From an uncultured archaeon (lineage in GTDB: Archaea; Thermoproteota; Nitrososphaeria; Nitrososphaerales; Gagatemarchaeaceae): DNA of 64,000 nucleotides. Shown here piece after piece: positions 38,441 to 64,000 of this stretch. The position numbers and the translations under genes were made by a program. Under the pieces are notes generated by a model that saw only the letters and a program-made list of their open reading frames with translations, ran no database searches and was not told where the DNA came from. The DNA lies in assembly GCA_963817525.1 (NCBI GenBank), contig CAWFOU010000007.1, positions 96,001 through 160,000 of the forward strand, in the 5' to 3' direction. Numbering within the stretch: the first letter of the stretch is position 1; every line of letters begins with the position of its first letter.

Positions 38441-38451
38441 CTGTCGAGTTG

Positions 38452-39885: not shown

Positions 39886-39889
39886 CGAA

Positions 39890-47854: not shown

Positions 47855-47867
47855 ACAGAGAAACACT

Positions 47868-48218
47868 TCAGACGTCGTACCCGAACTTCTTGGCGTAGTC
47901 CTTGTGGGTCTGGAAGAAATCAATCACTCTCACTATTCCTCTCCCGTCACGATTCAGAATCACAGTGTATGAGATCCTCGCGCCTTTCGTGAGGTTGGCC
48001 TTGTAGACGTTCCCCAACCCCATCCGCTTGTATTCCTCTGGCCACCTGTCCTTCGGGACGAAGGCGCCTGCTTTGAGCGGGGCCCTCTCCAGGCTTTCAA
48101 CCAGCGAATCAATCGACTTCTTCATTTCCTCGCCTTCGTTCAGCGACCGATAGTATTCCCGGAACTCAGCGGGCACCGTGACCTCGAAGGTCTTCTCTTT
48201 CGGAGACTTCCGACTCAT
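47868..48218 (-). CDS. RelE/ParE-like toxin
   Basis: GLGNVYKANLTKGARISYT...THKDYAKKFGY; paralog of 39890-40213. Confidence 0.7.
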   Translation of the reverse strand: MSRKSPKEKTFEVTVPAEFREYYRSLNEGEEMKKSIDSLVESLERAPLKAGAFVPKDRWPEEYKRMGLGNVYKANLTKGARISYTVILNRDGRGIVRVIDFFQTHKDYAKKFGYDV

Positions 48219-48521
48219 TTCGCAGCCACGCTCGGGGCCTTATTCACGCCTGCCCACGATGGAGTGGATCGTTCGAGTTAAACACCCCTGTTCCGCCCAA
48301 TTTTTTGCCTCATCTTCCCGTAGAGCTTCATCGCGCCGTCCCTGCCGGACCCTCCCGGGCAGAACAGGTCTATCACGACCTAGACGGGTTCGGCCAAGGT
48401 GAATTCTCCCTTCCTCCGCGCGGTATCTAGAATCAGCTCGGAAAATGATCACAGCCTGTAGCGTTGTGAATCTCAGGCTCGCGTTAAGAGCTTCTCGCCG
48501 CACACTCTGACGAACCGGAAG

Positions 48522-48740
48522 ATGACGCTCGAAAATGACGCGGTCGACATGCGCGCATTCAAGGAGCGCCTGAGGGAGAAGCTGCCCCCTGACAGCCCCT
48601 TGCTGGCCGACCTGCTCGCTGAGCCAGACTCGATGCCCGTCGGGAAGGCCGAGGTCCTGGTCCCTCACTATCTGCAGCGGCTGGAAAGAGAACTCGAGGG
48701 CAAGGGAGCGTCGAGAGGACCGCTCCTCAGGCGCGCGTGA
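48522..48740 (+). CDS. Small hypothetical protein convergent with the integrase
   Basis: 72-aa ORF with host-like codon usage; helical, LLAEPD motif. Confidence 0.55.
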   Translation: MTLENDAVDMRAFKERLREKLPPDSPLLADLLAEPDSMPVGKAEVLVPHYLQRLERELEGKGASRGPLLRRA

Positions 48741-48745
48741 GTCTC

Positions 48746-50079
48746 TTAGGCTGTCCTCAGCCCTATCACGGCCCTTCCGTCGGGCAGGTCCCGCTTGTAG
48801 TCCCACCCCTGCTCTATCCAGCGCTCGAGCTCCGCGACGGGCACGACCTTCTGCGTCCCCTCCTTCAGCCCGAGCATCTGCTTCGACTTTGCGTGGATGA
48901 GCTGCTGGAGCTGCTCCATCGTGATCCGGGTGATGTCGCCGACCCCCAAGAGCTCCTCGTCCGTGTAGCCGAACATCTTGAGCGCCTCGGTCCGCGCGGT
49001 GTTCACGACTTCGTCCCTGCTTATGCTCGCCTGGACCAGGGTCGCCAAGTGCTTCTCCGAGGCCTTTGCGTATGCCTGCCTCATACCCTCCAGCAGGTCC
49101 TCGGGGAGGTGTCCCTTGTTGAGCGTGTAGACATGCTCGATGTCCCCGGTGTGCCCCATCCAGAACACGCGGTAGTCCTTGATCACCTTTCCCTCCTGCT
49201 CGGCGCCCATCATCCTCGTGTCGAAGTACCTCCGCAGGACGTATGGCCTCCAGTCGAACCCCGCGGTCCTGATGGCGTGCCTTACCGCGTCGCATACGTT
49301 GCACACCCTCACGAACCTGCCGATGTAACGGGGGTTGAACTGGTTGGCCGTGAGCAACGGGGAGGCCCCGTCGATCTTCTCCTTCAGGATGTGCATCCTC
49401 CACTCCAGGTACTGCTTCACGTAGCCGCACCCCTGTTCGGGCAGGAAGGAGATGTACTGCCTCCCCGTCTTGGATATCGTCCTCCTGACGACCACAATGG
49501 CGGGCACCTTCAGGAACTCGACCTTCTCCTCTCCTGCGTCGCCCTTTCGTATGGTCATCTCGGGCAGGTCTGACACCCTCAGGCCGTCGTGTTCGCGTCC
49601 CTGTTCCCCAGCACCCCCGGCCTCACGCCGGAGAACGCCATGAGGGCGCAGGCGACCCTCTTCTGGAGGTCAGCGTGCTCGAAGATCGAGTGAAGCTCCT
49701 GGTGGGAGGGGACGCGCTCGTTGTCGTACACCCCCACGTCCCTGGCGAGCCTCACCTGCCTCGTCACCTCGAGGTCGTTGAAGCGCCACCACCCCTTCAG
49801 CTGCTTGACGCACCCGGCGATGGTCGAGCTCCTGTTGCCGTCGCTCTCCAGGCGGGAGACCACCCTGAACAGGAAGGCCCCGGCCTCTCCCTTGGACATG
49901 ACGGCCAGGTCCCTCTGCGTGACCTGGAGCAGCATGCAGACCCTCCCGACCCTGCGCAAGGTCACCTCGGCGTTCACCTTGCTCCCCCTCGCGATGTTCT
50001 CTATCCACGAGGCGAAGGCTTCATCTTCCAGCAGGTGTCTGTACTTGCTGTTCGGGAACAGCTGCGGCTTGGGGGTCAC
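48746..50079 (-). pseudogene. Tyrosine integrase, frameshifted at ~49590
   Basis: FSGVRPGVLGN | DGLRVSDLPEM in different frames; PYVLRRYF, WMGH, HVY. Lies adjacent to the att repeat at 50139. Confidence 0.85.
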
Positions 50080-50138
50080 GCCATTCCGGGGAATTTCTCC
50101 TAATAACGGCGGGGCTTCGACTCGTGCGGGCAGGCGTA

Positions 50139-50151
50139 CCGTCGGGCCCGC
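50139..50151 (+). repeat. att-like copy 1 of the tRNA-Lys 3' end
   Basis: CCGTCGGGCCCGC, identical to the tRNA 3' end. Confidence 0.75.
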
Positions 50152-50417
50152 TAATTAACCCCATTCTGAGCTTTGTTTCGTCAGAAGGGGCGGAATGCAG
50201 GGATGCGGCGTTGACCTAGACTGTTTCAGGGAATTGTCGAAGGTCGCCTTCGCGTCACCAAGATTGCGCCGGCGAGGACCAGTAGGCGGAGGCGCAATCA
50301 TCGTAAGGGACGGCGAGGTGCAGGCCGGACAACCTCCAGATTCAGGCGCAATCTTTCGCCAGATTCAAGCCTGAAATCGTCTCTCTTTGGGCGAGTTCTT
50401 TCTGATCCGTGGGTATA

Positions 50418-51119
50418 CTACCGAGGGGGTTCGACGACGAAGGTAACGTACACGTATTGATTCCAATCGTCCCAGGCCAGGATTGTGTACTCGCCGGGAG
50501 AGAAGGGCACGAGAGTCCCGCTACCGGTATCATAGTAGCCAACCAGCCCCGGATTCTCGCAGCCGCAAGTCTGCTGCCTGTAAGAGAGGATTGTGGTCAC
50601 GTTGAGCCGGCTGGGAACGAGCCCTGAGATCGTTCCGAAATCGGTTTCGTTTGCTTTTGTCTGCGAGGCGCCCGGAAAGAAGGTGACTTGCGTAGGGTCA
50701 GTGGGACCACCACAATAAAGGACCACGGGCACCGCCAGTTGCAAGGGCGACCCCGCCGATGAGATGTTCCCAGCTGTGAAGTGCCCTGGGAAGACTGCAT
50801 AGCCCATGAAGTCCCAAAAGCCGCAGACGCTGATGTAACTGATCCAAGTCGTGAGGTTCTGACTCTGAGCGACCGAGACCGAGAGTGTGACGTTTCGGTC
50901 CGACTTGTTCACCACCGTCACCCGCCCGGTGATCGACCCGTTGAATCTCATGGCCGTGGCATTCAGCGTCAGGTCCAGCTGTAGGCCTTTCGCCGAGACC
51001 GGCGAGGCGAAGACCAGGGGTCCTCCGCCCTGAGTGCTCGAAGGCAATGCGACCAGGCCCAAGACCCCTATGATAATCCCTGCCTGCACGACCCAGAATG
51101 CCCCCTCCTTGCGCTTCAT
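50418..51119 (-). CDS. Membrane-anchored extracellular protein
   Basis: TM plus a domain shared with 52519-53802 (GLQL.L.LNAT, F.GH.TA.N.S.AG.PL.L, PF..G.YTILA.D.WNQ). Confidence 0.7.
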   Translation of the reverse strand: MKRKEGAFWVVQAGIIIGVLGLVALPSSTQGGGPLVFASPVSAKGLQLDLTLNATAMRFNGSITGRVTVVNKSDRNVTLSVSVAQSQNLTTWISYISVCGFWDFMGYAVFPGHFTAGNISSAGSPLQLAVPVVLYCGGPTDPTQVTFFPGASQTKANETDFGTISGLVPSRLNVTTILSYRQQTCGCENPGLVGYYDTGSGTLVPFSPGEYTILAWDDWNQYVYVTFVVEPPR

Positions 51120-51321
51120 TCGACTTTTGGAGGGGTCGGACTGCTATAACCCATGTGGAACGCTGGTCGCGTTCGAGGCATTCGTCGGATCCCCTCATCC
51201 CGAAAGAGTTTGGAGCGCTGCGGATCTTTCCTGATAGCTGGATAGCTCACCTCAGGTTTTAAGCTGCCCTAATGGCCGAAGGCGCCGAGGGCGCAACGCG
51301 CCTTCCAGTGCGGCGTCGCAC

Positions 51322-51960
51322 TTACGGGAATGCGAACTGAGCCAAGATTACTGTAGTGTTTGTTGGGGGTGGCTGATGGGGCGCACCGGTGTCTTCCGTC
51401 CAGCTGAAGTTGAGATTTACGGCGACGCTCCCTGGTTGCGCCAGTCGGTAAACGAATTGGTCACCGGAAGCGGGAGAGAATAGCGTGAAATTCTGGTCAT
51501 GACCCAGGTCGATCTCTGCAGCAACAATCCCGGGGCAATTGCAACCCTCTGTGAGGAGAGAGGGATTTGGAATGACGTTAGAGTTGAGGACATAGGATTC
51601 AAAGGATATCGTGGAGTTGCCGATGTTCTTGACGGTTACGAAGAACATCACGTCTCCGCCGTTGAAACCTGTCGCTTCGACGGAGAGCACCTGTAAGGTC
51701 CCGATCGGACCATAGGTGAACACGCCGCAGGTGATGTTTGCGAGGGCGTAGGAGGTGTTGTCAGGTGCGGAAGGGAAGGGGGAGATGCGACCGACGGGAC
51801 AGGCGCCAGTCATCAGGCTGGTCGATGTAATAGTGGAGGTGCTGACGGAGGTGACTGTCTCCGTTGCTCTGGTGCTGTTTCCGGACAAGTAGCCGATGCC
51901 GAGGCTCGCCACGAGCAAGATTACGACCATTACCCCGACCGCTTGTCTCCCCATTTTCAT
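51322..51960 (-). CDS. Membrane-anchored extracellular protein
   Basis: N-terminus ILLVASLGIGYLSG...TETVTSVSTST resembles that of 1-1054. Confidence 0.7.
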   Translation of the reverse strand: MKMGRQAVGVMVVILLVASLGIGYLSGNSTRATETVTSVSTSTITSTSLMTGACPVGRISPFPSAPDNTSYALANITCGVFTYGPIGTLQVLSVEATGFNGGDVMFFVTVKNIGNSTISFESYVLNSNVIPNPSLLTEGCNCPGIVAAEIDLGHDQNFTLFSPASGDQFVYRLAQPGSVAVNLNFSWTEDTGAPHQPPPTNTTVILAQFAFP

Positions 51961-51968
51961 TCTTTCGG

Positions 51969-52517
51969 TCAGCTCCAAGTGCCTTCGAAGTTGAAGTTCG
52001 TCTCGGTCCCAGCGGAGTAGGGGCCCACAGAATCTACAATCTTCGCTTGGAAGAGCCCTTCCGACGATGACCCGCTCGGCTCATGGGCGAGCTCTGTCGT
52101 GGGGAGAGCGCAGGTCGCGGCGACCTGCGAGTTCGCGGGTATGCCCGCTGCGGCGGGACCGCCAACCGTGCCGTTGAAGTTGTTGTCTGTGGTGACCGTT
52201 AGGGTTGCAGTGCCCGTGGAAGATTGGCTGGTGGTGATGTAGGTGACGCCAGTGTCGTTGACGCCTATGACCACCGACACTTGACAGTCCTCCAGCTGCA
52301 AAGGCGTAGTGCTATTATTCACGATTGTGCAGATGCCCGTCGCAAGAGAGCACGAGACATCTTTCGCTGACAGTTCCCCTATCAATGGCTCAAAGCATTT
52401 GGGACAGTATCCAGTAGTCAAACCTGTTCCCGGGACGAGATTGACGTATGCCACGTATCCGGATGCGACCAGAAGGAGCGCCAGAATTGACAAGGCGAGA
52501 GGGAGCTTTGATTTCAT
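51969..52517 (-). CDS. Membrane-anchored Cys-containing extracellular protein
   Basis: Start MKSKLPLALSILALLLVASG, 1 bp after the upstream stop. Confidence 0.65.
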   Translation of the reverse strand: MKSKLPLALSILALLLVASGYVAYVNLVPGTGLTTGYCPKCFEPLIGELSAKDVSCSLATGICTIVNNSTTPLQLEDCQVSVVIGVNDTGVTYITTSQSSTGTATLTVTTDNNFNGTVGGPAAAGIPANSQVAATCALPTTELAHEPSGSSSEGLFQAKIVDSVGPYSAGTETNFNFEGTWS

Positions 52518-52518
52518 C

Positions 52519-53802
52519 CTAACCTTCACTCTGGAATTGGACATCCACTGTTTCTGAGAACGTGGTGAACTGAGCGGCACTAACCAACGTCCCGTTGAGC
52601 ACAAGGGGATAGGTTACTCCGCTAGCGAAGCCCGCACCGATTAGCGTCGTGGTGAAGTGGACCGTCTGCGCTGGGAACAAGGGGCTGGACGTGCTGACGT
52701 TGAAGTTGGTCGAGTGCGGGCCAGGTGAATCTGCAGGGATGGTCGGGAAAGTGGCTGACAACGATGTTATCGTCATGTTTCCCACGTTCTTGAACGCGAA
52801 GGCGACCACCGGTCCGCCCGGATTGTAGGGCGGGATAGGACCTGTTACCGAAAGAACGTCAACTGGGCTTGGCGTCGGGGAGGCGTCGAAGTAAGCGTAA
52901 GCGGCCTGGTTCCAAATGTCTTCCGCGAGAATCGTGTATGAGCCGGCGGGGAAGGGCTGAAATACGTCGTTGAGGCCTTCAGCACAGATGTCGACGGCCA
53001 CCTGCGTCGGTGCGGCCGGACACACCTGAGTCGTCCGGATCGGCCAATAGCCATAGAGCATGGAGCCGGGGTGACATCCAAGGCCGAACTCCTTACCGCT
53101 GTATGATAGTCGAGTGCCGTTCTCTACGTTACTATAGGAACCCGAACCAGCAGTGGGAGCGCATGCCTCCGTGGCGGCGCTTGTCAGCATCTTGACTTGT
53201 GCCGGCTTGAACACGCCGCTCTCAGAAGTGTTGGCTAGGAGGGTGGCGACGTCGCTGTAAGGCGGGAGCTCGATCGTCTTGACGTAGTTTGCGGGATGGA
53301 CGTAGTTGGGGCACAAACTGGGTTCTGGTGGCCAGAGCAACAACGGCAGACCCGCCTCGGAGACGTTCGCCGCAGTGAGGTGCCCCTGAAACAACGCATA
53401 ATCGAAGATATGGTCGACCGAGCTGAAATCGCACTCACTGTTGTCGCCGTTCCAGACGGCGAGGTTCGGGTTGGCCGAAAAGTTCGCCGCGAGAGAGACG
53501 GTCGTTGGCAATGTGTTGACGAGGTCTATTTGGGCGGCAACAACCCCTCCTTGCGGGATCGTTGTGGCGTTCAGATCCACTCGCAGTTGCAGCCCCATCG
53601 GAGAGACTGCCGAAATGAAAGTTGTCGAAGAATTAACCTGCGTCTGATTTCCTGGTTCGGAAGTTATCGAGACGACTCCCATCAACGCGACCATCGACAC
53701 TATAATCGCGACGAAGAGGATGTGAGAATTGACCGCAGCGCTCCTTCCGGTCACTTCTCGAAAACTCCTCTTTGAAACTATCCGTGTCAAGGCCCACCGC
53801 AT
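52519..53802 (-). CDS. Membrane-anchored two-domain extracellular protein
   Basis: TM, a domain paralogous to 50418-51119, and a C-terminal VLSV...KNVGN domain like 51322-51960. Start uncertain. Confidence 0.7.
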   Translation of the reverse strand: MRWALTRIVSKRSFREVTGRSAAVNSHILFVAIIVSMVALMGVVSITSEPGNQTQVNSSTTFISAVSPMGLQLRVDLNATTIPQGGVVAAQIDLVNTLPTTVSLAANFSANPNLAVWNGDNSECDFSSVDHIFDYALFQGHLTAANVSEAGLPLLLWPPEPSLCPNYVHPANYVKTIELPPYSDVATLLANTSESGVFKPAQVKMLTSAATEACAPTAGSGSYSNVENGTRLSYSGKEFGLGCHPGSMLYGYWPIRTTQVCPAAPTQVAVDICAEGLNDVFQPFPAGSYTILAEDIWNQAAYAYFDASPTPSPVDVLSVTGPIPPYNPGGPVVAFAFKNVGNMTITSLSATFPTIPADSPGPHSTNFNVSTSSPLFPAQTVHFTTTLIGAGFASGVTYPLVLNGTLVSAAQFTTFSETVDVQFQSEG

Positions 53803-53982
53803 GGTGTTTCGCTAGAAGGTGGCTCTTGGATGTTGTGGAGGTATGTTCTCTGTCAGGCGAGTACTTTGGAATGAAATATTCGCGGCGCCCCGGGCGGGAT
53901 CTCCATCATCTGGTTAGAATCCCCATCACGAGGACCCAAATCATGTCAGTGCGGAAGCTCTTTCCTGGCAAATCCGACGTAG

Positions 53983-55665
53983 TTAGGGACACAGCTCCTC
54001 GGATGGGAGGGCCTCTTGGGCATTGAACACGTGGACGGCCGCGCAGCTTCCCGATTCCATGGGTGAATCCGATGCCACAGCCCAGACCGATCCTGCGCCC
54101 GAGGTCACAGCTATCCCCTGGACGTCATAGCTTGCCAGGACCGTGCCGTTGTCCCCGACGAGGTCGGTTCCTGAGGCATCCCCGCCGCTGAGAATCAATG
54201 CAGAACCATTATCAACAAAGCCCGCTGGAATACCAAGATTCGTGAAGTTCCAGAGGAGCTGGCCACCGGCGGTGAAGAGTTGGGCACCGTCTCCTATCGC
54301 TGCGACGTACGATCCGTCAGGTGAAATAGCGACCGGCTGCGCAGCCATGCCTTCTTGGTGCTTCCAGAGAAGCGCGCCGGTCGCACCGTCGAAGAGATAG
54401 ACACTGCCGTTCGAGTTCCCGGTATATACCGGCCCCCCCGCAACATAGGAGCCATTAGTGGACATCAGGACATTTGCGGTACCCGCGTTGTCTTCAGTGT
54501 AATTCCACACCTGATGTCCCTGTGAATTGAGACAGAAGACGCCCCAACCGAAGTTCGTCCAATTTCCTAGAAGCATGTCCTCCGCACTCACGACGACTGA
54601 GCCCCCGTCCCTCGACATTGCCAGATGAATGCTATTACCGCCACTTCTACTGGGAAAGGTGAAGTTCCAAAGGACGTCGCCGGCGGTGTTGAGGTAGATC
54701 ACGCCAGCTGTGTAATCTGCGGCTATCCGCGACCCATTTGCGGAAATGGCCACCTGGAAGATGGGATATCTGCCGGTGGAGACGTTCCACAGCATCTTCC
54801 CCTGCGTGTTGAAGAGGTAGACCTCCCCGTCACGGTAAGCGGACCAATAGCCACCTGCCGCCACATAGGAGCCGTTGCCCGAGACGGCGACGGTATCGAT
54901 GGCCGTGTTGTTTGTGACGTGCCTCCACGACTGCGTCTGTGAGCTCAACGAGACCAGATAGACAGACCCGTTCATGTCACTACCATCTTTGGTTCCTGCG
55001 GCCTAGTTTGAGTCCGCGCTGATGCTCAAGGCATCCACGGCCTGAGTCGCCGATGCCGCTGGGCCTGGTCCCCCGCTGCTCACCAGGTACTCCGCGCCGT
55101 AGCTGAGGAAATCCCATACCTCCTGCGAGATGAGCCAAGCGCCGCTCGAAGCGGAGTAGGCGAAAGAGTCCTCCGCGGAAATCGTGGCGCTGACATTACC
55201 CAAGACAGGGTCCTCCCCAACGAGAGCAAAGCTCGAGTTCACCGTCGCCAGGTCGTCGGAAACGACGACTTTCCCTAGAGTTACGTTCCCGATGGATATC
55301 GAGATGAATTTTCCTAGGAAAGATCCCATCAGGATGCGTATGTTGCCTGCGCCGGAGTAGTTGCCTGTGAGACCGGCTACCTGCCCCGCCCAAGTGACGG
55401 TCGCGTTGCTAGCGTATTGGCTGTCTATTGCGGACAGGTTCCTAGAGGAGAGCCATTGCATGTGATCGGCAAAGCTGCTCTCGACAATAGCGGTATCGAT
55501 ACCCGTCGATGTTTTCTTCAAATCTACCCCGGATGATGTTGAGCTCGATCCGAGCCGAGCCGGCAAGATTGCTATCGCGGTCAAAACCACCAGGGCAGCG
55601 ATGACTATCGCCGCTGCCACGACCTTGTAGCGTCCGATGCCGCGTGCAGGCGGATTCGTCACCAT
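53983..55665 (-). pseudogene. TM + NTF2-like + WD40/PQQ beta-propeller protein interrupted by an in-frame TAG (55003-55005)
   Basis: The two ORFs are in the same frame: ALSISADSN*AAGT...GSVYL is one propeller blade. Confidence 0.7.
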
Positions 55666-55761
55666 TGTGCTTCACGGGGAAGAAGCAAAAGGAGATTCGG
55701 TGACTAATACGTTTGTCCGAGTGTTTAGAGCGTGGTCGCAGGGATTTGAACAGTTGCGGTC

Positions 55762-55802
55762 GGATTCGCTTAATATTCTAAGCGACTCCCCTCGGGCCCG
55801 CC
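55762..55802 (+). repeat. att-like copy 2 (11-6-11 palindrome + tRNA 3' end)
   Basis: GGATTCGCTTA-ATATTC-TAAGCGACTCC-CCTCGGGCCCGCC. Confidence 0.8.
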
Positions 55803-55985
55803 TTGATTCGAACCCACCCGGGTTCGAATCCCCCGCGTTCCTTCCTGCGATTCTGTCAGCTTAAGGGACATGAAAGCCCTCCTGATTACAGTTGCATAAA
55901 TGCTACGATGAGAAATTCCATGTCCCTTGAGCTAACAGAGTGCTTCTTGCATATCGTTAAATATCATATAGCCAAGATTTAACCA

Positions 55986-56225
55986 ATGGAAAGTCGGCTC
56001 CTCAAGAGGATCGTCGTCGACCCGAGAATAATGGTCGGCAAGCCAGTGATTAGAGGGACCAGAATTCCTGTCGACACAATCATCCATAGGATTGCTCAGG
56101 GGGGCACCATCAAGGAGCTCCTAGAAGACTACCCAAAGATAACGCGGTTAGATGTGAAGGCGGCGCTAGAATACGCGGAGAGCCTTGTGCGGGGCGAAGA
56201 CGTTTTGCCGCAAATAAAGAGCTAG
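55986..56225 (+). CDS. DUF433 antitoxin
   Basis: IVVDPRIMVGKPVIRGTRIPV...DYP...AALEYA. Confidence 0.9.
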   Translation: MESRLLKRIVVDPRIMVGKPVIRGTRIPVDTIIHRIAQGGTIKELLEDYPKITRLDVKAALEYAESLVRGEDVLPQIKS

Positions 56226-56226
56226 C

Positions 56227-56583
56227 ATGCGCTTCCTTGTGGACGAGAGCACAGGAAGGAAGATCTGCGAACTCCTTGGCGCGGCTGGTCACGACACGAC
56301 GTTCGTCGGCGACTCGATGCCAGGCTCCGCGGACGAAGCCGTCCTCGCCTTGGCGGATAGCGAAAGGAGAATCTTAATCACTGATGACAAGGATTTTGGC
56401 GAGCTCATTTTCAGACTCGATAGGCCCACGACAGGGGTCATTCTGTTAAGGCTCTCGACGGCAAACTCTCGGAGACGAGTAAGAATTCTTCTTGATGTCA
56501 TCAAGAGCTTGCAGCTCGAGGGAAGTTTCACGACGGTCACGGACAACGGAATCAAGACACGAAGGTTGCGCTCCAGAGGGTAG
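56227..56583 (+). CDS. DUF5615 PIN-like toxin
   Basis: MRFLVDES...GHD...DEAVL...ILITDDKDFGEL. Confidence 0.88.
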   Translation: MRFLVDESTGRKICELLGAAGHDTTFVGDSMPGSADEAVLALADSERRILITDDKDFGELIFRLDRPTTGVILLRLSTANSRRRVRILLDVIKSLQLEGSFTTVTDNGIKTRRLRSRG

Positions 56584-56625
56584 GCGGCAAGCCCTTCGTC
56601 GAAGATTCTATCTTCCAACTTGACC

Positions 56626-56675
56626 GGGAATCCACTTTGAGAACCCGTTCAGGGGCGGGTCCCGTCGGGCCCGCC
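56626..56675 (+). repeat. att-like copy 3 (long-hairpin type + 16-bp exact tRNA 3' end)
   Basis: GGGAATCCACTTTGAGAACCCGTTCAGGGGCGGG-TCCCGTCGGGCCCGCC, followed by AGATTCGCTTG-AGATGT-TAAGCGAATCC at 56678-56705. Confidence 0.85.
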
Positions 56676-57085
56676 TTAGATTCGCTTGAGATGTTAAGCG
56701 AATCCAACTAAACTTGCTTAGAGTCCCAGGCGAAATCCATTTAGCGTAAGTACTTCCATCGCCCTCGGGTTCGAAGCCAAGGGATCGATTCTGCCGGCCC
56801 GTCGATTCCTGCGAGCAAAATTCAAAGGATCAACTTGATTCTACGGGCATTCGATGCTAAGAAGGATTCGCATAGATTCCCCCCAAGTGTTCTTGCTTCG
56901 ATGGCCCACGGGTTTCTCGTCGTCCGGCTCGACTTCCTGAGGAGGGAAATTACATTCGCCCTCTGATCGAGAGGCGGCCCTCTCTGCCGCTTGGCGTGCA
57001 TCTACGACCCTAATTTCAAGTTCGCCTTCAGCGTTGAACAGACACAACGGCTTTATGACGCGGCTCTTCGATTAATCGAGAAGTA

Positions 57086-59041
57086 ATGTCCCAGGGCGTA
57101 CGGAGACTTGCGGCTATAATGTTCACGGACATGGTGGGCTTCACAGCTCTGGGCCAACGGAATGAACAACTTTCCATTGCCCTGGTTGACGAACAAAGGA
57201 AACTGCTGAGGCCAATCTTCACCAGACATAACGGTAGAGAGGTCAAGACTATGGGAGATGCCTTCCTCGTTGAATTTCCAAGCGCACTGGATGCCGTGAG
57301 GTGTGGGTACGACATCCAAAGAGCCACCAGAGAATTCAATGTCTCGTTACCAAGCGAGAAGAGGGTACACCTGAGAGTCGGGGTTCACCTTGGGGACGTT
57401 GTGGAGTCTCAGGGGGACATTTCGGGCGATGCGGTAAACTTGGCATCGCGAATAGAGCCCTTGGCAGAAGATGATGGTGTGTGCATTACCCGTCAGGTCT
57501 ACGACCACGTCAAGAATAAGTTCGAGCTCCCATTGGCAAGCCTCGGGAGCAAATCCCTAAGGAGCATCGCCGAGCCGTTGGAAGTTTACAAGATGATAAT
57601 GCCGTGGGAAGAACGGAATGCCTCACAATCAGAACACTTCGACAGGAAAAGAATTGCAATCTTACCCTTTGCTAACATAAGCCAGGGTGACAACGACGAG
57701 TACTTCGCAGACGGCATGACAGAGGAGCTGATCTCCACACTATCTAGAATCGGAGGTCTGAAAGTCATTTCCCGCACTTCCGTGATGCGATACAAGGCCT
57801 CGGGCAAGAGCGTGAGCGAAATTGCCAAGGAGCTAGGAGTAGGGACGATCCTGGAGGGAAGCGTCAGGATGGCTGGCGGCCACCTGAGGGTCTCGGCCGA
57901 GCTCATAGATGCGGGAAGAGACGAGCATCTCTGGTCACAAGACTACGACAGGGATTTGGAAGACGTGTTCAAGATTCAGACGGAGATCGCCCAGAGAGTT
58001 GCTGAGGCACTGAGAATAGAGCTTCTTTCGGTCGAAAGAGAGGACATTGAACGCCGGGTGACCGAAAGCCCTCAGGCTCATAAGCTCTATCTGAGGGGGC
58101 GTCACTATTGGAACGAAAGGACCAAGGATAGCGTCGATAAAGCTGTAAAATACTTCGAGGAGGCCATCAAGCTGGATTCCAAATACGCGCTCGTCTATGC
58201 CGGGCTTGCTCGTTGCTACATCCTCTACGGTGCATGGGGCTTCATGAGACCGAATGATTCATTTCCCAAGGCCAAAAGGTACGCAATAAAGTCCATAGAG
58301 ATCGACCCGAGGTTGGCTGAGCCGCATACCATCTTTGCCGACGTCCTCAATGATTACGAAGGGCGCTGGGTGGAGTCGGAGCTAGAATACAGGCGGGCAT
58401 TGGAGCTCAATCCTAGCTACGCTACGGCACACATGTGGTATGGGCTCTTGTTAGTATTCTTGACAAGGTTTGACGAGGCTCGCGACCATATCAGGCTAGC
58501 CATCGAGCTTGATCCGCTCACCCATGTCGGTGCATTGAATCTTGCTGGAGTGTCACTCTATGAGGGAAGACCGCGAGACGCCGTAGAACAGATTGAAAAT
58601 GCAATTGAGGGAGACCCCGAATTCGCCCCCAACCACAATGCTCTCGCTTGGGCATACTGCCTTGACTCAAGAACCGACGAAGGGATCAGCGAGATGAGGA
58701 AGGCATTGGCAATGTCTGGCGAACCTATTGATAAAGCGGACTTGGCCTGCCTACTAGGCTTCTCCGGTCGAACGGAGGAGGCCCGCAGTATACTCAAAGA
58801 AATCAAAGAGACTTCGAAGGTTACCTATGTCTCCAAGATGAAGATTGCGCAAGTCTTGTTTGCCTTGGGAAATTACGATGAGGCATTCAAGCTCCTCGAA
58901 GAGGCGAGGGAAGATCATTCGCTCTTCACCCAACACGGGAGCTATCTCCTTGACATGAGATTGCTTCCTTTGTTCGCTCCGGTGCGAGAGGACAGAAGGT
59001 GGCAGACGTTTGTAGCAACCTTAAAGATCCCAGAAGCCTAG
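57086..59041 (+). CDS. Class III adenylate/guanylate cyclase - TolB-like - TPR protein
   Basis: RLAAIMFTDMVGFT, KTMGDAFL, RVGVHLGD, GDAVNLASRI, IAILPFAN, YFADGMTEE, TPR repeats. Confidence 0.9.
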   Translation: MSQGVRRLAAIMFTDMVGFTALGQRNEQLSIALVDEQRKLLRPIFTRHNGREVKTMGDAFLVEFPSALDAVRCGYDIQRATREFNVSLPSEKRVHLRVGVHLGDVVESQGDISGDAVNLASRIEPLAEDDGVCITRQVYDHVKNKFELPLASLGSKSLRSIAEPLEVYKMIMPWEERNASQSEHFDRKRIAILPFANISQGDNDEYFADGMTEELISTLSRIGGLKVISRTSVMRYKASGKSVSEIAKELGVGTILEGSVRMAGGHLRVSAELIDAGRDEHLWSQDYDRDLEDVFKIQTEIAQRVAEALRIELLSVEREDIERRVTESPQAHKLYLRGRHYWNERTKDSVDKAVKYFEEAIKLDSKYALVYAGLARCYILYGAWGFMRPNDSFPKAKRYAIKSIEIDPRLAEPHTIFADVLNDYEGRWVESELEYRRALELNPSYATAHMWYGLLLVFLTRFDEARDHIRLAIELDPLTHVGALNLAGVSLYEGRPRDAVEQIENAIEGDPEFAPNHNALAWAYCLDSRTDEGISEMRKALAMSGEPIDKADLACLLGFSGRTEEARSILKEIKETSKVTYVSKMKIAQVLFALGNYDEAFKLLEEAREDHSLFTQHGSYLLDMRLLPLFAPVREDRRWQTFVATLKIPEA

Positions 59042-59079
59042 TTTTTTCGGCTCTCGGTCTCGAGACCTGTCCTGCAGCA

Positions 59080-59118
59080 GGGTTCGCTTGGAACATTAGG
59101 CAATCCCATCGGACCCGC
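59080..59118 (+). repeat. att-like copy 4 (11-6-10 palindrome + tRNA 3' end)
   Basis: GGGTTCGCTTG-GAACAT-TAGGCAATCC-CATCGGACCCGC; abuts the vapC stop codon. Confidence 0.7.
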
Positions 59119-59489
59119 TAGCTTATCCAAACACGCTTCACCTCGGTGAAGTGCGGGTCATCTGTGACACAAGAGACGCGCAGACTCTTCGACGTTGCCA
59201 TGATCAACGAATCAGCCATGGGAACTCGCAGTCTATGGCTTATCCTAGCTCCCTCCTCCGCTATCCCGGCGCTCACATCGACTATGGTATACTCGTTTGC
59301 AATCGTGCGGGTGCGCAGCTCGGCAACCGTCTTGTCATCGTGTTCAATGGTCTGTTTGTATATCTCGTAAATGCTGATTGATGACGCGAACGGAGTCTTT
59401 GCCTTCTCGAAGATCGCCTTGAGCTTCCTGGTTATCTCCGCGTCCTTTGAAGTGAAGACGGCCCAGAAATACCTGGTCTCGAAGAGCAT
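59118..59489 (-). CDS. VapC/PIN toxin
   Basis: SISIYEI, MADSLIMAT, VTDDPHF. Confidence 0.85.
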   Translation of the reverse strand: MLFETRYFWAVFTSKDAEITRKLKAIFEKAKTPFASSISIYEIYKQTIEHDDKTVAELRTRTIANEYTIVDVSAGIAEEGARISHRLRVPMADSLIMATSKSLRVSCVTDDPHFTEVKRVWIS

Positions 59490-59492
59490 GAG

Positions 59493-59717
59493 TCACCCCT
59501 CAGATGAGCGCATCTCGTCAAGCAGTCGGAAGGACTCCTCGGTGGACAGCTTGCTCTTTCCTGCAAGGTCGAAGATTGATGGAATTTTTGTGAGTACTAC
59601 CTTGTCCCCTTCCGTGTCGACCATTAGCCTTGTTCCCTCCTGTATTCCGAGTTTCTTTCTTATGGATATAGGTATCGTCGTCTGCCCTCGCCTGGTGACA
59701 ACAACCTCTTGAGCCAT
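59493..59717 (-). CDS. AbrB/MazE-type antitoxin
   Basis: VTRRGQTTIPISIRKKLGIQEG. Confidence 0.88.
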   Translation of the reverse strand: MAQEVVVTRRGQTTIPISIRKKLGIQEGTRLMVDTEGDKVVLTKIPSIFDLAGKSKLSTEESFRLLDEMRSSEG

Positions 59718-59840
59718 GAGAGTGGCACGAATTCCTACTATAAAGCAATTCCTACCGCCGTAGGATTCCTATCTGCCCCGTCAGTCAGCTTAGGCGGGCT
59801 GGCGCATAGGTTCCTAAGCGGGCTTCTCCGATGCGACCAA

Positions 59841-59889
59841 GGGAATCCGCTTTCAGAACCTGTTCAGGGGCGGACCCCGTCAGGCCCGC
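59841..59889 (+). repeat. att-like copy 5 (long-hairpin type)
   Basis: GGGAATCCGCTTTCAGAACCTGTTCAGGGGCGGACCCCGTCAGGCCCGC. Confidence 0.85.
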
Positions 59890-60018
59890 TAATGATAAGC
59901 TCAATTTGAACTCTTTTTGAGTATGGCGAACATATTTGTGCCATTCCAGCGATTGTCGAAGCTAATCCGTCTGAATCGAACCCCTAAATATCGTCACCCA
60001 CTACTTACGCCTCGCGTC

Positions 60019-60414
60019 TTGAACGACAAGAAGGGAACGGGACCTGGCCAAGTCAGCGAGTCTGAACTTGCTGATCGAATATTCTCGTTCGACGACGCCA
60101 TCATGTTCTGCGTGATTATGAGCTCCGACGGGGACGTTCACGTGATACGGTCGCAGCCGGGAAGCGGGAGCCTGGTACGGAATAAGGGCGACGTCGAAAT
60201 GCTAGCCAAGCGGTGGGCTATCGTCAGGGGGATAGACGACACGGCAGACAAGTTGTTGGGACAGTCGCGTAGCGCAATAATCCTTCGCGACAAGATTACA
60301 TTGATGAGCATAAACGCGCCCGGCGGAAGGTGCGCGTTCGTCGGGGCACGCCCGGACGTCGATATTCGAAAGGTAAGAGAGATGGAAGAGGCAGTCGCCC
60401 TACTCAGCCCATAA
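60019..60414 (+). CDS. Roadblock/DUF6659-like protein
   Basis: IFSFDDAIMFCVIMSSDG...LLGQSRSAIILRDKI; resembles 23515-23904. Confidence 0.55.
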   Translation: MNDKKGTGPGQVSESELADRIFSFDDAIMFCVIMSSDGDVHVIRSQPGSGSLVRNKGDVEMLAKRWAIVRGIDDTADKLLGQSRSAIILRDKITLMSINAPGGRCAFVGARPDVDIRKVREMEEAVALLSP

Positions 60415-60463
60415 CTGGCGAGGCTGGAGGTCAGCTCCCAGGGGGGGGCGCGGCGTCGCGCTT

Positions 60464-60507
60464 GAATCCGTTGAAAAACCGTTCGGAGGCGGCCCCGTAG
60501 GTCAGCT
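60464..60507 (+). repeat. att-like copy 6 (degenerate long-hairpin type)
   Basis: GAATCCGTTGAAAAACCGTTCGGAGGCGGCCCCGTAGGTCAGCT. Confidence 0.55.
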
Positions 60508-60577
60508 GCCCTTCGCGAGGGTTGGATTCGAACTTCGAGTGCACGGCAACCCTATCGCGCAAGAGTCCTCTTGAGGA

Positions 60578-61438
60578 CTATAGGATATTCAGGTCGCTAG
60601 CTGCGTAATAAGAAGGAACCAACGGGCGAAATCCGAGACTTCTGATTTTTTCAGTGTTAAGGAGGCCGCTCCACGGGTTTATCAAAGGAGTCGCCGGGTC
60701 TGCCAGCTTCGCGGTCTGACCCGCCAGGCGGATGACCTCTTGTAGAGTAATCGGCGAGTCATCGGCGACGTTGCATATCTCGCCCCCCATGGCAGAGACG
60801 CCCAATGCCAGCTTCACGGCTTGCGCAACATCCAAATGGTGCAAAAGATGCAACCTATACGCCGGATGACGGGCCCACCGCTCAAAGAGCGGAATCGATT
60901 CTGGTAGATGCGGGTCACCGGCGCCGTAAACGAAGCTGAAGCGCAGGATGCTTACGTCAAGTTGTCTCGCCGCGTGCATGCCAAGCAAGAGTTTCTCCGA
61001 AGCCACTTTGCTCGAGGGATAGGCAGCCGTTGGACTGACGTGGTCGCTTTCTATGGCAGGCGCGGCGTCATTGCTGTAGACCGTGCTTGTGCTTGAAAAG
61101 ACAAAGCGAACCTCTGGGTTGATTTGGGAAGCCGCTCCGGCTATGTTTTTCGTGCCGGTCTCGTTTATGCTTTTGATCTTATCAGCGTCTTCGCTGCGAA
61201 GACTGCGAAAGAAAGCCGCAAGGTGCACGATTGCATCGACCCCGACAAGGGCTTCTTGCAGGCTCTCAGGCTGCATGATGTCGCCGACGAAGGTCTCTGC
61301 CCCTTTGGCTTTGAGCTTCCCCGCGGTTTCGTCATCGGTTCTTCGGACAAGTATTCGTACGGAATGACCGCCGGTGAGCAGAGACGGAACTAATCTGCTT
61401 CCTACTTTTCCAGTTGATCCCGTTACCAGGACGTTCAT
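60578..61438 (-). CDS. NAD-dependent epimerase/dehydratase (extended SDR)
   Basis: VLVTGSTGKVG, VHLAA, YPSSK. Confidence 0.88.
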   Translation of the reverse strand: MNVLVTGSTGKVGSRLVPSLLTGGHSVRILVRRTDDETAGKLKAKGAETFVGDIMQPESLQEALVGVDAIVHLAAFFRSLRSEDADKIKSINETGTKNIAGAASQINPEVRFVFSSTSTVYSNDAAPAIESDHVSPTAAYPSSKVASEKLLLGMHAARQLDVSILRFSFVYGAGDPHLPESIPLFERWARHPAYRLHLLHHLDVAQAVKLALGVSAMGGEICNVADDSPITLQEVIRLAGQTAKLADPATPLINPWSGLLNTEKIRSLGFRPLVPSYYAASDLNIL

Positions 61439-61540
61439 TTTCTAGACTGCGAGGTAGTCGACGCGCCTATAAGAATGCTTTGTATAAAGTAAATTGGTAT
61501 AAAGTAATTAGATATAGAGGCGGGCAACCAACCGCCCCGC

Positions 61541-61984
61541 GTGGAAGCCAGTCCGAACGCCGGATCTCTTGGCCACTGGGTGAAGATGATAAACCATGAC
61601 GCGACCATCAAGGGGAACCGCCTCCTCAAACCATTCGGTCTGACTCAGAGCGCCTGGTACGTCCTCTATCAGGTCAACCAAGCGGAACGGATCTCCCAGA
61701 AGAAGCTTCAGGGGACCCTAAGAATAGAGTCCGGAAGCATGGCGATGATCGTGGATAGTCTCGTCCGAAAAGGGTGGCTCGAAAGAACCTCCAGCGAGAA
61801 AGATCGCCGAGCCAATTATCTCAAGCTCACCCCCAAGGGCGCCGCTCGGTGGAAGACAGTTCCGGACGTAGCATCTGTCTTACGAAAGGAAATGATGCGG
61901 GGCATCTCGGAGGCGGAGGAGAAAGCCGGCATAGCGGTACTGAAGAAGTGTTGGGCTAACCTGGAGAAGGCGACCGCTGTCTAA
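61541..61984 (+). CDS. MarR-family regulator
   Basis: FGLTQSAWYVL...LVRKGWLER...DRRANYLKLTPKG. Confidence 0.88.
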   Translation: MEASPNAGSLGHWVKMINHDATIKGNRLLKPFGLTQSAWYVLYQVNQAERISQKKLQGTLRIESGSMAMIVDSLVRKGWLERTSSEKDRRANYLKLTPKGAARWKTVPDVASVLRKEMMRGISEAEEKAGIAVLKKCWANLEKATAV

Positions 61985-62011
61985 CAGAAAGAGTCCGCGA
62001 ATCAATTCATC

Positions 62012-62051
62012 GGATCCGCCTAGAGGATTAAACGCATCCCGTGGGGCCCGC
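62012..62051 (+). repeat. att-like copy 7 (11-6-11 palindrome + tRNA 3' end)
   Basis: GGATCCGCCTA-GAGGAT-TAAACGCATCC-CGTGGGGCCCGC. Confidence 0.75.
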
Positions 62052-62095
62052 TCCCATTACGGTTAATACACAGACCCCACCCAGTCACGGGCGTC

Positions 62096-62926
62096 TTGCC
62101 CACGATTAAGACGAAAGATGGGACTCAGATTTACTACAAGGACTGGGGGACGGGACAGCCTGTCGTCTTCAGCCACGGTTGGCCGCTCAGCGCCGACGCG
62201 TGGGAAGACCAGATGCTCTTCCTGGGCTCGCGCGGATATCGTTGCATAGCGCACGACCGCCGCGGTCATGGGCGCTCCGACCAGCCCTGGAACGGCAACG
62301 ACATGGACACCTACGCTGACGACCTTGCCGACCTTGTCAAGCATCTCGACCTCAAGGGCGCCGTTCACGTTGGTCACTCGACCGGGGGCGGCGAGGTCGC
62401 GCGCTACATTGGGCGGCATGGGACGAAGCGCGTCGCCAAGGCCGTTCTCATCGGGGCAGTGCCACCCATAATGGTGAAGACGCCGTCCAACCCTGGCGGC
62501 CTGCCTATCGAGACGTTCGACCAGATCCGCGCGGGAGTCCTGGCAGACCGCTCGCAGTTCTGGAAGGACCTGTCGATGCCGTTCTACGGCGCCAATCGCC
62601 CCAACTCCAAGGTGTCGCAAGGCCTGCGAGACTCGTTCTGGCTCCAGGGGATGTGGGCAAGCCACAAGGCGGTCTACGACTGCATCAAGCAGTTCTCCGA
62701 GACGGATTTCACCGAAGACCTCAAGAAGATCGACGTGCCGACGCTAGTCCTCCACGGGGACGACGACCAGATAGTGCCCATTGCGGACTCGGCGTTGCTG
62801 ACAGCCAAGATAGTTAGGAAGGCCACTCTGAAGGTGATCCCCGGAGCGCCCCACGGCATGTGCTCGACCCTCAAGGACACCATCAACGCAGAGCTGCTGG
62901 CGTTCCTGAAGCAAGGCCTTTCATGA
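62096..62926 (+). CDS. cpo: Non-heme chloroperoxidase-type alpha/beta hydrolase
   Basis: [41 protein letters not shown]. Confidence 0.9.
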
Positions 62927-63016
62927 GCTCCCGAGACCGCTGAATCCCGAGCGGCTACGTTCCGATCCTTGGCAGGGCCGCCTCCTTATTATTATCAAGA
63001 CCTATCTCGGACAATC

Positions 63017-63868
63017 ATGACAGACTCGACGCAGAGCTTCTGGCCCAACGATGCACGGCTCGTCATCTCGGTTTCCATGCAGTTTGAAACCGGATCTCAA
63101 CCCGACCGTGGAGCCGCGAGCCCCTTTCCGCCTCTTGATCCCAAGTACCCTGACCTGCCCGCGCAAAAGTGGTACGACTATGGCTTCAAGGAAGGCATCC
63201 CCAGGCTCCTCGACCTGTGGGACCGGGTCGGCATCAAGGTGACGTCTCACATGGTCGGCCGAGCCGTCGAAAGACACCCTGAACTTGCGAAGGAGATCGT
63301 CGATCGAGGCCACGAGGCGGCCGGCCACGGTCAGACCTGGGAGCCGCAGTACTCCATGACCTCCGAGCAGGAGCGCGCCGGGTATCAGGCCAGCGTCGAC
63401 ACGATCCGGAGGGTGACGGGCACACGCCCGGTCGGTTTCAACGCGTTCTGGCTTCGCGGCACTACGAGCACCCTGGGAATCCTCCAAGACCTGGGCTTCA
63501 TCTACCACATCGATGACGTCAGCCGAGACGAGCCCTTCACGGTGACCGTGAAGGGGAAGCCCTTCGCCGTCGTGCCCTACACGATTCGCAACAATGACAT
63601 CGTGCGTTTTGATTCGCCGGCGATGACGAACGCCGCTTACCTGCAGGACGTTAAGGATGATTTTGATGTCCTCTACGCAGAGGCGGCCTCCCGCCGCCGG
63701 ATGATGTCGATCAGCACGCACGACCGGATCTCCGGCATCCCAGGACGAGTGAAAGTGCTGGAGGAGTTCATCAGGTATGCCCAAGGACGTGACGACGTCG
63801 TGTTCATGCGGAAGGACGAGATCGCAAGGTGGATCTTGTCGGCTTCCGACGCGCCTCGCGAAGAGTGA
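63017..63868 (+). CDS. Polysaccharide deacetylase family protein (PuuE-like)
   Basis: WPNDARLVIS, YGFKEGIPRLLDL, GHEAAGHG, STHDRISG. Confidence 0.85.
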   Translation: MTDSTQSFWPNDARLVISVSMQFETGSQPDRGAASPFPPLDPKYPDLPAQKWYDYGFKEGIPRLLDLWDRVGIKVTSHMVGRAVERHPELAKEIVDRGHEAAGHGQTWEPQYSMTSEQERAGYQASVDTIRRVTGTRPVGFNAFWLRGTTSTLGILQDLGFIYHIDDVSRDEPFTVTVKGKPFAVVPYTIRNNDIVRFDSPAMTNAAYLQDVKDDFDVLYAEAASRRRMMSISTHDRISGIPGRVKVLEEFIRYAQGRDDVVFMRKDEIARWILSASDAPREE

Positions 63869-63901
63869 GCCGACCGGCCACCCATTGAGCGAGAGATTTT
63901 C

Positions 63902-63949
63902 GGAGTCCATTTGCAGAACCCGTTAAGGGGCAGACCCCGTCGGTCCCGC
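63902..63949 (+). repeat. att-like copy 8 (long-hairpin type)
   Basis: GGAGTCCATTTGCAGAACCCGTTAAGGGGCAGACCCCGTCGGTCCCGC. Confidence 0.8.
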
Positions 63950-64000
63950 TGCCAATACTTGCCTGGAAGTATTGGATAGAGTTATGTTTCCGTCGAGGTG

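Follow-up and report, generated by a model that had tools for sequence, protein, structure and literature searches.

The DNA studied here is a stretch of 64,000 nucleotides (hereafter the window; positions 96,001 to 160,000 of contig CAWFOU010000007.1, assembly GCA_963817525.1) from an uncultured archaeon of the Gagatemarchaeaceae. It carries a tRNA-Lys(UUU) gene, a cryptic integrated element directly behind it and, further downstream, a row of small gene cassettes. Eight co-oriented junctions lie downstream of the tRNA gene. Each of them consists of an arm on its left and, on its right, a tRNA-derived core that resembles the 3' end of a tRNA. Comparison with related genomes makes it probable that these sites are attR-type junctions and that the genomic island grew by repeated site-specific integration in tandem (accretion) at the 3' end of tRNA-Lys(UUU).

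The tRNA-Lys gene and the junctions behind it

The tRNA-Lys gene (35131-35243, plus strand), the anchor of the island on its attL side, ends in ...GGGTTCGAATCCCGTCGGGCCCG(CC) and contains two non-canonical introns of about 19 nt, the first lying in the D loop and the second between variable loop and T stem. ARAGORN reported no tRNA and Rfam no RNA family in the window, and the intron-bearing gene was missed by both; it was located via its 3' end, followed by in-silico intron removal. With the two insertions removed, ARAGORN called a tRNA-Lys(ttt) in 2199 of 2401 boundary variants, and the orthologue in the related genome G009 has the same exons. In the whole genome ARAGORN lists only 33 tRNAs, several with implausible introns, so that it has probably overlooked many tRNA genes.

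Seven of the junctions had been proposed in an initial annotation of the sequence, and all seven were confirmed at their coordinates, on the plus strand throughout. Three are of a short type, an inverted repeat of 11-6-11 geometry, and four of a long type, one of them decayed. Short arms are found at J1 (55762-55802; arm GGATTCGCTTA-ATATTC-TAAGCGACTCC, core CCTCGGGCCCGCC), J3 (59080-59118; core CATCGGACCCGC) and J6 (62012-62051; arm GGATCCGCCTA-GAGGAT-TAAACGCATCC, core CGTGGGGCCCGC). The 11-6-11 geometry holds for J1 and J6, but the right arm of J3 measures 10 nt, not 11. Long arms are found at J2 (56626-56675), the core of which, CCCGTCGGGCCCGCC, is identical to the 3' end of tRNA-Lys (15 nt shared with the tRNA end ...GGGTTCGAATCCCGTCGGGCCCGCC), J4 (59841-59889; core CCGTCAGGCCCGC), J5 (60464-60512), where both arm and core are decayed, and J7 (63901-63949; core CCGTCGGTCCCGC), the last junction found. 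The counterpart of J5 in G009, at the right end of the same cassette, has an intact arm.

Two sites had escaped the initial annotation. J0 (50081-50152, plus strand), at the right end of the integrated element, is an eighth junction with a third, integrase-proximal arm type ('type 4', containing CCTAATAACGG) and the core ACCGTCGGGCCCGC. The same combination of arm and core also adjoins homologous integrases at G000:C1, G009:C2 and G012:C5, G000 being the genome of the window. The other site is an inverted 11-6-11 hairpin arm (56678-56705, minus strand), which adjoins J2 on the right, directly against its palindromic core. The short (S) and long (L) types, once thought to alternate, follow no rule: the order is S L S L L S L in the window, L L in G009 and L L L S S in G012.

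Every site terminates in CC-NNN-(C)GGGCCCGC (CC-NNN-CGGGCCCGC). The right arm was said to merge into the T-arm sequence CGAATCC, and in G009 a hairpin arm and the tRNA-Lys gene indeed share 21 nt from CGAATCC onwards. With up to 3 mismatches allowed, the long pattern matched twice in the window and never in 100 dinucleotide-preserving shuffles, and a third long copy was recovered as an 80%-identical family member (family D4). The 11-6-11 pattern likewise gave 2 matches against 0 in 100 such shuffles; the copies at 59080 and 62012 exceed 3 mismatches and were recovered with a laxer pattern script. By itself the tRNA-like core is no rarity in such GC-rich DNA, with 11 matches against 7.19 ± 2.81 expected and at least 11 in 10 of 100 shuffles. 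Eight of the 11 matches are co-oriented and lie between 35231 and 63949.

The core is common to several tRNA genes. According to a genome-wide listing of CGGGCCCGC[C/T/A], at least nine tRNA genes of G000, one of them at 35231-35246 of the window, close with a T arm and CGGGCCCGCC. The hairpin arm also occurs joined to another tRNA end, that of tRNA-Ile (ATCCCTTCCGGCCCA), at G000:C7:1051704, 691822 and 702504. The first of these sites sits 5.8 kb behind a tRNA-Ile gene, and in this hairpin-ended 5.8-kb element two large open reading frames (ORFs) show no similarity to the integrase profile. The triplet that precedes CGGGCCCGC is that of the resident tRNA in 6 of 8 cases in the window and in 3 of 3 in an array on C8 (see below); a strict rule to this effect failed in two of four arrays. 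Neither a 5' acceptor strand nor a D or anticodon arm precedes any site, which rules out split-tRNA 3' halves and T-loop introns. Direct repeats that match the 3' part of a tRNA and are co-oriented with an intact gene copy, as found here, are typical of the junctions of tRNA-targeting integrative elements.

Filled and empty alleles and permuted cassettes

Comparison of filled and empty alleles, one of the checks named in the initial annotation, was possible at the tRNA-Lys gene. In G009 this gene is followed by a 2.4-kb cassette without integrase, which ends in a perfect hairpin, GGATTCGCTTA-GAACAT-TAAGCGAATCC, and CGTCGGGCCCGCC. After CGTCGGGCCCGCC, G009 continues with the sequence that lies directly 3' of the tRNA in G000 (TCCGCTCGAGTCCGAATCC...), i.e. 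the empty allele. The duplication at the filled site, CGAATCCCGT(A/C)GGGCCCGCC, comprises the last 21 nt of the tRNA, starting within the T loop.

Three cassettes of the window are shared with G009, where their order is different. Named by their cargo, the window has vapBC, unk165, epimerase/MarR and hydrolase, in this order. In G009 the integrase and a J0-like type-4 arm with its core are followed by unk165, a long site, vapBC, a second long site and the hydrolase cassette, so that vapBC and unk165 are swapped. Thus vapBC has a different left neighbour in G009, unk165 precedes it directly behind the integrase-proximal junction, and the hydrolase cassette has the same first base after the core but is preceded by a long arm. 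At all three comparable left junctions the similarity of the cassettes starts immediately after ...CCCGC. The arm to the left of this point is short in the window versus long in G009 for vapBC and for the hydrolase cassette, and long versus type 4 for unk165. At the right end of unk165 and of vapBC the arm is of the long type in both genomes.

Because similarity begins after the core, the left arm varies with the neighbour and the right-end arm stays, each arm appears to travel with the cassette on its left, the exchange taking place within the tRNA-derived core or at its edge. Boundaries and repeat coincide both at the tRNA-Lys duplication and at the three left junctions, and every breakpoint falls inside the core or at its margin, none of them in the hairpin spacer. 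This agrees with one of the crossover positions considered beforehand, within the tRNA-derived part. The cassettes lack an integrase, carry one site at one end and vary in order between relatives, as integron cassettes do. Together, the filled and empty alleles and the permuted cassettes support the earlier proposal that the sites are recombination junctions bounding gene cassettes.

A further comparison concerns the integrase side of such rows. A 12,000-bp integrase-bearing stretch is 100.000% identical between the genomes of two species (G000:C1:1153345-1165344 and G012:C5:1-12000). Since this identity reaches only 2 nt past the core and the cassette arrays that follow differ, the integrase seems to belong to a large mobile element that ends at the core, with the cassette row beyond it. 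The identity reflects either a very recent transfer of the integrase-bearing element or an assembly/binning effect.

Conservation and structure of the arms

Both arms were searched for in 41 genomes, and reversed-pattern controls gave no match for either. The long arm (at most 3 mismatches) was found in 8 genomes, namely the genome of the window itself, 6 of 22 in its genus and one in a second genus. The hairpin arm was found in 14 of the 41, including 13 of 24 same-family relatives and none of 16 genomes from other families; G000 holds 8 copies. The arms are thus conserved in homologous loci, as had been anticipated. A metagenome scan yielded 42 further loci, whose long arms come in 31 distinct forms, at least 22 of which are followed by the CC-NNN-C and core context; an earlier metagenome scan with a vapC-end pattern gave no match. 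A 19-mer scan of genome contigs returned 34 stretches. Eleven were inspected (8 archaeal, 3 bacterial), of which five are real sites (L050, L055, L057, L063 and L064) and six are coincidences in coding sequence; the remaining 23 are all in bacterial records. The site families are homogeneous across unrelated cargo, and in many genomes and metagenomes both arm families stand at the ends of small cargos, dozens in all, that are unrelated to one another.

For the short arm we aligned 22 oriented hairpins, i.e. 21 sites of hairpin and core plus the inverted hairpin at J2, read on the minus strand. The outer arm hardly varies, and the inner arm varies without compensation: compensatory changes were seen in 0 of 11 pairs, and 83.1% of cells pair compared with 83.6% in shuffles. 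The spacers are AT-rich (80% A+T) and, in line with the initial annotation, mostly different, with 17 distinct ones among the 22. In 31 long sites neither candidate helix rose above shuffle controls, and single-strand DNA folds of six sites, on both strands, gave z-scores from -1.8 to +1.1. An attC site combines a variable sequence with a conserved fold; in these sites the sequence is kept and the structure is not. The attC-like hairpin recombination that had been suggested therefore gained no support from the covariation and both-strand folding checks, both at shuffle level, and the homology-independent exchange suggested with it is not needed, since a shared core exists. As the arms lack compensatory changes and fold no better than shuffles, double-stranded att junctions are favoured.

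The arms do resemble the tRNA. Their inner half-site reads AGCGAATCC in short arms, GGCGGGTCC in long arms and GGCGAATCC in the metagenome copy L116, in the register that TTCGAATCC holds in the tRNA. The outer half-site, GGATTCGC, is similar to the core GGGCCCGC, from which it differs by transitions. In L116 the inward half-site copies the T loop of the tRNA and complements nothing.

A tyrosine integrase family beside the junctions

A tyrosine-integrase gene (48764-50049, minus strand) abuts J0. It belongs to a Nitrososphaerota family that Pfam does not detect and is split by a frameshift into two frames. By tblastn its two pieces correspond to amino acids 5-156 and 161-425 of an intact paralogue, G000:C7:691916-693202, with 37-39% identity. 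Short-read contigs over 49500-50100 show no indel at the frameshift.

The Pfam model PF00589 detects 7 tyrosine recombinases in the genome, none of them inside the array, and does not detect the family of C7:691916-693202 at E values up to 1. The relationship is nevertheless visible, since a PF00589-positive protein (C7:342480-343745) aligns with the 429-aa protein of C7:691916-693202 (27% over 422 aa, E = 1.7e-39). In three aligned family members R150, Y269, R272, H299 and Y307, the expected catalytic positions, are invariant. The best solved relative is XerA of Pyrococcus (4a8e), a weak match (E = 0.13). Homologues number 1923 at E ≤ 1e-5, some of them named 'site-specific integrase [Nitrososphaerota archaeon]' at NCBI.

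Members of the family adjoin junctions in the window, at G000:C1 (1153442), G009:C2, G012:C5 and G000:C7:691916. Further members lie directly behind two tRNA genes, and fragments are found at other junctions. The copy at C7:691916 opens a 10.6-kb element (G000:C7:691864-702545) that ends in a hairpin arm and core, so that an integrase-bearing element also has such an arm. A recombinase is thus found in or beside the inserts, as a frameshifted copy beside J0 and as intact paralogues beside junctions elsewhere. An integron has its IntI-type integrase next to the array and outside any larger mobile element; here the integrase, in divergent orientation, does adjoin the array, but it escapes PF00589 and terminates a shared element that measures at least 12 kb.

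The window also encodes a PF00589-positive integrase of 418 aa (5972-7228, minus strand). A 72%-identical copy of its residues 30-123 lies at G000:C7:393647-393928 and ends exactly at a CGGGCCCGCC core. Integrases whose own gene is split upon integration would be expected to leave such a copy, truncated at the core. Near the 5972-7228 integrase, tandem repeats of 35-36 nt (families D1 and D2) occur at 4905-5039 and 5406-5472, and again at 46742-46878 inside the integrated element; they could be iterons or binding arrays.

Contents of the island and related sites

The integrated element E1 occupies about 14.9 kb directly behind the tRNA (35246-50152) and consists mostly of ORFans in a Pfam scan; the matches comprise one proteasome-like, one DUF4420 nuclease-like and one SnoaL-like protein. 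The integrase of E1 is encoded at the end far from the tRNA, and the right part of the element (44722-50177) is 92-97% identical in G009, at the same position relative to tRNA-Lys. A 5.6-kb cassette or element remnant follows (50153-55761), with six minus-strand ORFs, one encoding a beta-propeller (PQQ-like) protein and the rest without Pfam match.

Six cassettes lie between J1 and J7. Cassette 1 (55803-56625, plus strand) encodes a toxin-antitoxin pair of DUF433 and DUF5615 (PIN-like) proteins (55986-56225 and 56227-56583), and cassette 2 (56676-59079, plus strand) an adenylate/guanylate cyclase-TPR protein (57086-59041). The family of the latter has many copies across the genus, with 63-72% DNA identity and at least 4 more in G000. 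Cassette 3 (59119-59840, minus strand) is vapBC, a pair of VapC (PIN) and VapB (AbrB/MazE-type) proteins; the vapC stop codon overlaps the final base of the J3 core. Cassette 4, unk165 (59890-60463, plus strand), encodes a 165-aa protein without Pfam match (59917-60414). Cassette 5 (60513-62011) combines an NAD-dependent epimerase (60578-61438, minus strand) with a MarR regulator (61541-61984, plus strand), and a paralogous epimerase/MarR cassette (81% and 75% identity) stands directly after a clean core at G000:C1:788921. Cassette 6 (62052-63900, plus strand) holds the alpha/beta hydrolase (62096-62926) and a polysaccharide deacetylase (62969-63868). No integrase match was found in these six cassettes, and the integrase-bearing E1 lies on their tRNA-proximal side. 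The island therefore contains att-bounded units without a recombinase of their own, in tandem with an integrase-bearing element.

Just left of J1, at 55732-55752, lies the reverse complement of the 3' end of another tRNA (T loop and acceptor), which is kept at a hairpin site of G012. Just right of the J1 core, at 55805-55830, is a perfect 11-4-11 palindrome of T-arm sequence (GATTCGAACCC/GGGTTCGAATC). A near-identical J1 arm occurs at G000:C8:75940 with another neighbour and another triplet (CAC). At 56661-56705 the centre of the core, CGGGCCCG, is palindromic, and J2 has a long arm on one side and the inverted hairpin arm on the other. Because the core centre is palindromic and J2 is armed on both sides, cassettes may insert in either orientation.

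Elsewhere in the genome a second array, behind a tRNA-Arg(CCU) gene (G000:C8:68666-77400), has three junctions, all reading CCCAC-CGGGCCCGCCA, two of which carry another arm type (GGGGCTCGAAC...GCGAGCCCGAAAAA). The T stem of this tRNA-Arg(CCU) has an A-A mismatch, and its 3' part could have come from an inserted element. At G000:C1, around 775000-794300 (minus strand), a second repeat family, TAGCCCGTCCAGGGGCTGCACCTG..TTAGGGGCTTTTA, has at least 7 copies interleaved with plus-strand cores at 779111, 785436 and 788921. It may represent another cassette array with another site type and mixed orientations.

Origin of the junctions

The anatomy of the sites, their conservation, the filled and empty alleles, the permuted cassettes and the adjacency of the integrase are direct observations. 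On this basis we propose the following scheme. The right part of each junction is a 10-21-nt copy of the tRNA 3' end, which takes in a portion of the T loop, the 3' strands of T stem and acceptor stem, and the discriminator. The left part, an arm of 28-36 nt, belongs to the left-hand cassette and would be a stretched imitation of the T arm of the tRNA (a T-arm palindrome), offering the same half-sites to the integrase in double-stranded DNA. Such an arm begins with a half-site that faces outward (GGATTCGC or GGAATCCRC), continues with AT-rich filler, 6 nt long in the short and 13 nt in the long type, and closes with a half-site that faces inward (GCGAATCC or GGCGGRYCC), exactly in the register of the TTCGAATCC of the tRNA. 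A cassette of 0.6-5.6 kb comprises cargo and one arm, without an integrase. Tyrosine integrases of the Pfam-undetected Nitrososphaerota family would move it in trans, and strands would be exchanged in double-stranded DNA within the tRNA-derived core. The recombination itself, as well as the identity of the acting integrase, the role of the half-sites as binding sites, the exact cleavage points and any present-day activity, we infer from sequence comparison.

A number of observations weigh against this scheme. The integrase adjacent to the array is frameshifted in the window and, at a different place, in G009, for which reason the array may now be static. Cores have decayed, with one mismatch each in J3, J4 and J7 and many in J5. 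Behind tRNA-Ser (0/1) and tRNA-Arg-CCG (0/1) the triplet does not match that of the resident tRNA, which leaves the extent of the required identity ambiguous. At the filled site of G009 there is a single informative polymorphism, A versus C at position 66, and the crossover can be read on either side of it, so that mapping by this polymorphism is ambiguous. The complete identity of 12,000 bp between two species could partly reflect the assembly or binning of co-occurring populations. Finally, contigs of four soil runs (X1, X2, X3 and X5), aligned over 49500-64000, contained no joints, the low depth making this a weak test of mobility. Loose contig ends at 55765 and 55802 stem from the paralogous C8 site.

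Some of these points would also be expected if the sites were dead scars, i.e. remains of large integrase-bearing elements that decayed in place, the arms being DNA that lay beside attP and the differences between genomes having arisen by deletion or homologous recombination. The frameshifted integrase, the decayed J5, the mismatches in other cores and the lack of joints in the reads fit such an origin, and the integrase-bearing element with a hairpin arm (G000:C7:691864-702545) is a possible parent form. We nevertheless consider it unlikely. Across many genomes and metagenomes the same two arm families recur on dozens of small, unrelated cargos, and the 2.4-kb cassette of G009, without integrase and with a perfect arm, lies beside the tRNA, where the newest insert is expected. 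The swap of vapBC and unk165 is impossible by deletion, and flanking junctions of different types share about 10-15 nt, which is short for homologous recombination. For the same reason, homologous recombination between long arms is an unlikely source of the swap where the flanking arm types differ. Less probable again is an integron-type mechanism, in which the arms would fold like attC, with one strand recombined by the integrase as an imperfect hairpin and the spacer irrelevant. The layout is that of an integron, since the integrase is transcribed away from a primary site (J0), which is followed by integrase-less cassettes with one site each, and the homogeneous site families, the toxin-antitoxin cassettes and the variable spacers fit as well. 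But it is the sequence of the arms that is conserved rather than their structure, as shown by the 0 of 11 compensatory pairs and by helices and folds at shuffle level. The L116 half-site GGCGAATCC copies the T loop and has no complement, the breakpoints fall in the shared tRNA-derived core, and on its integrase side the array borders the end of a mobile element that measures at least 12 kb.

The 11-6-11 arms might instead imitate dif and serve XerA of the host, or a paralogue similar to Xer, as sites; strands would then be exchanged where the 6-nt spacer meets the arms, as in bacterial elements that exploit Xer. Their geometry equals that given for archaeal dif in the review PMC8371274, two 11-nt inverted repeats with a 6-nt spacer, and a Xer-like paralogue (47% identical to a 284-aa Xer-like protein) is encoded 1.6 kb from the hairpin site at G000:C7:691822. 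With 8 copies in G000 and 17 distinct spacers among 22 sites, breakpoints outside the hairpin and a 13-nt filler in the long arm, we judge this very improbable; among all compared loci, moreover, the Xer-like protein matched solely L081, its own source locus. Least credible of all is a role in RNA, with the hairpins and the tRNA-like end acting as signals for transcript 3' ends or processing (terminators, RNase P/Z handles), even though 5 of 7 sites lie within about 30-50 nt after a plus-strand gene and the core mimics a tRNA acceptor strand. Two of the seven, J1 and J4, are situated 5' of minus-strand genes in divergent orientation, which speaks against the terminators that had been named as an alternative. 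There are no T tracts and no covariation, Rfam gave no match even at E values up to 10, the tRNA-like fold has no 5' acceptor strand to complete it, and the filled and empty alleles would be left unexplained.

Accretion by site-specific integration at the tRNA-Lys gene can be extended to a more general, tentative proposal, which we hold to be possible although somewhat less likely than its negation. Soil Nitrososphaerota would run a tRNA-anchored, integron-like capture system, in which a Pfam-invisible integrase captures, excises and reshuffles integrase-less cassettes in trans. Two interchangeable designs of a stretched T arm would serve as their sites, about ten tRNA genes ending in CGGGCCCGCC as targets, and the palindromic core would permit either orientation.

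Comparison with known systems

The island offers a testable anatomy for the assembly of accessory-gene islands (toxin-antitoxin pairs, signalling proteins, hydrolases) in uncultured soil Thaumarchaeota. Its unit is a short, portable arm imitating a T arm, joined to the last 10-21 bases of a tRNA. Since several tRNA genes share that end, the same cassettes have many docking sites in the genome. The Pfam-undetected integrase family, together with this compact site, could serve as a tool for site-specific integration.

Integrated elements of Thaumarchaeota have been surveyed; their att sites have a median length of 17 bp, and 39 of 68 lie in tRNA genes (Krupovic et al. 2019, PMC6563490). The island resembles these elements, as far as they are described there, in its use of the 3'-distal part of tRNA genes, intron-bearing ones included, in its tyrosine integrases, in its ORFan-rich cryptic element and in its one-site arrays. 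With 10-21 nt, the att repeats are short as in that survey. Arrays that arise by re-use of one att site are known (PMC6563490, PMC8371274), although in the available text both papers touch on arrays only briefly and describe no such cassettes. Unlike the thaumarchaeal elements, most units here measure 0.6-3 kb and have no integrase, two conserved arm families are common to units with unrelated cargo, and one core serves at least nine tRNA genes. With dif/Xer the island shares the inverted-repeat geometry of the short arm (11-6-11, as given for archaeal dif in PMC8371274), but the arms are multi-copy, the spacers vary, and the breakpoints lie outside the spacer instead of reflecting spacer exchange at a single dif. 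Tycheposons of Prochlorococcus are outlined as cargo-carrying integrative elements at tRNA genes that form variable genomic islands (bioRxiv 10.1101/2020.12.28.424599). They are bacterial, and the likeness is drawn from this general description.

The arrangement is intermediate between classical integrative elements and integrons. Archaeal integrons were reportedly found in 2022. As in integrons, there is an integrase, a primary site and a row of integrase-less cassettes with one site each, homogeneous sites, toxin-antitoxin cargo and variable order. Unlike integrons, the sites give no signal of an attC structure, the crossover appears to lie in a double-stranded tRNA-derived core, genes occur in both orientations, and the integrase is part of a mobile element of at least 12 kb, with the array anchored to a tRNA gene. 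In Streptococcus, cis-mobilizable elements (CIMEs) are found beside integrative and conjugative elements (ICEs); they are non-autonomous att-flanked units that share a tRNA-type site, in tandem, with an element bearing an integrase, and it is probably this neighbour's integrase that moves them. They are bacterial, few per site and derived from ICEs, and the present island differs from them in its long arrays, its arms that mimic a T arm and its archaeal integrase family. Tandem accretion of non-autonomous cassettes at a tRNA gene, in an integron-like layout, is thus of a known kind; what is new are the two portable arm families that mimic a T arm, the core common to many tRNA genes and the integrase family missed by domain models.

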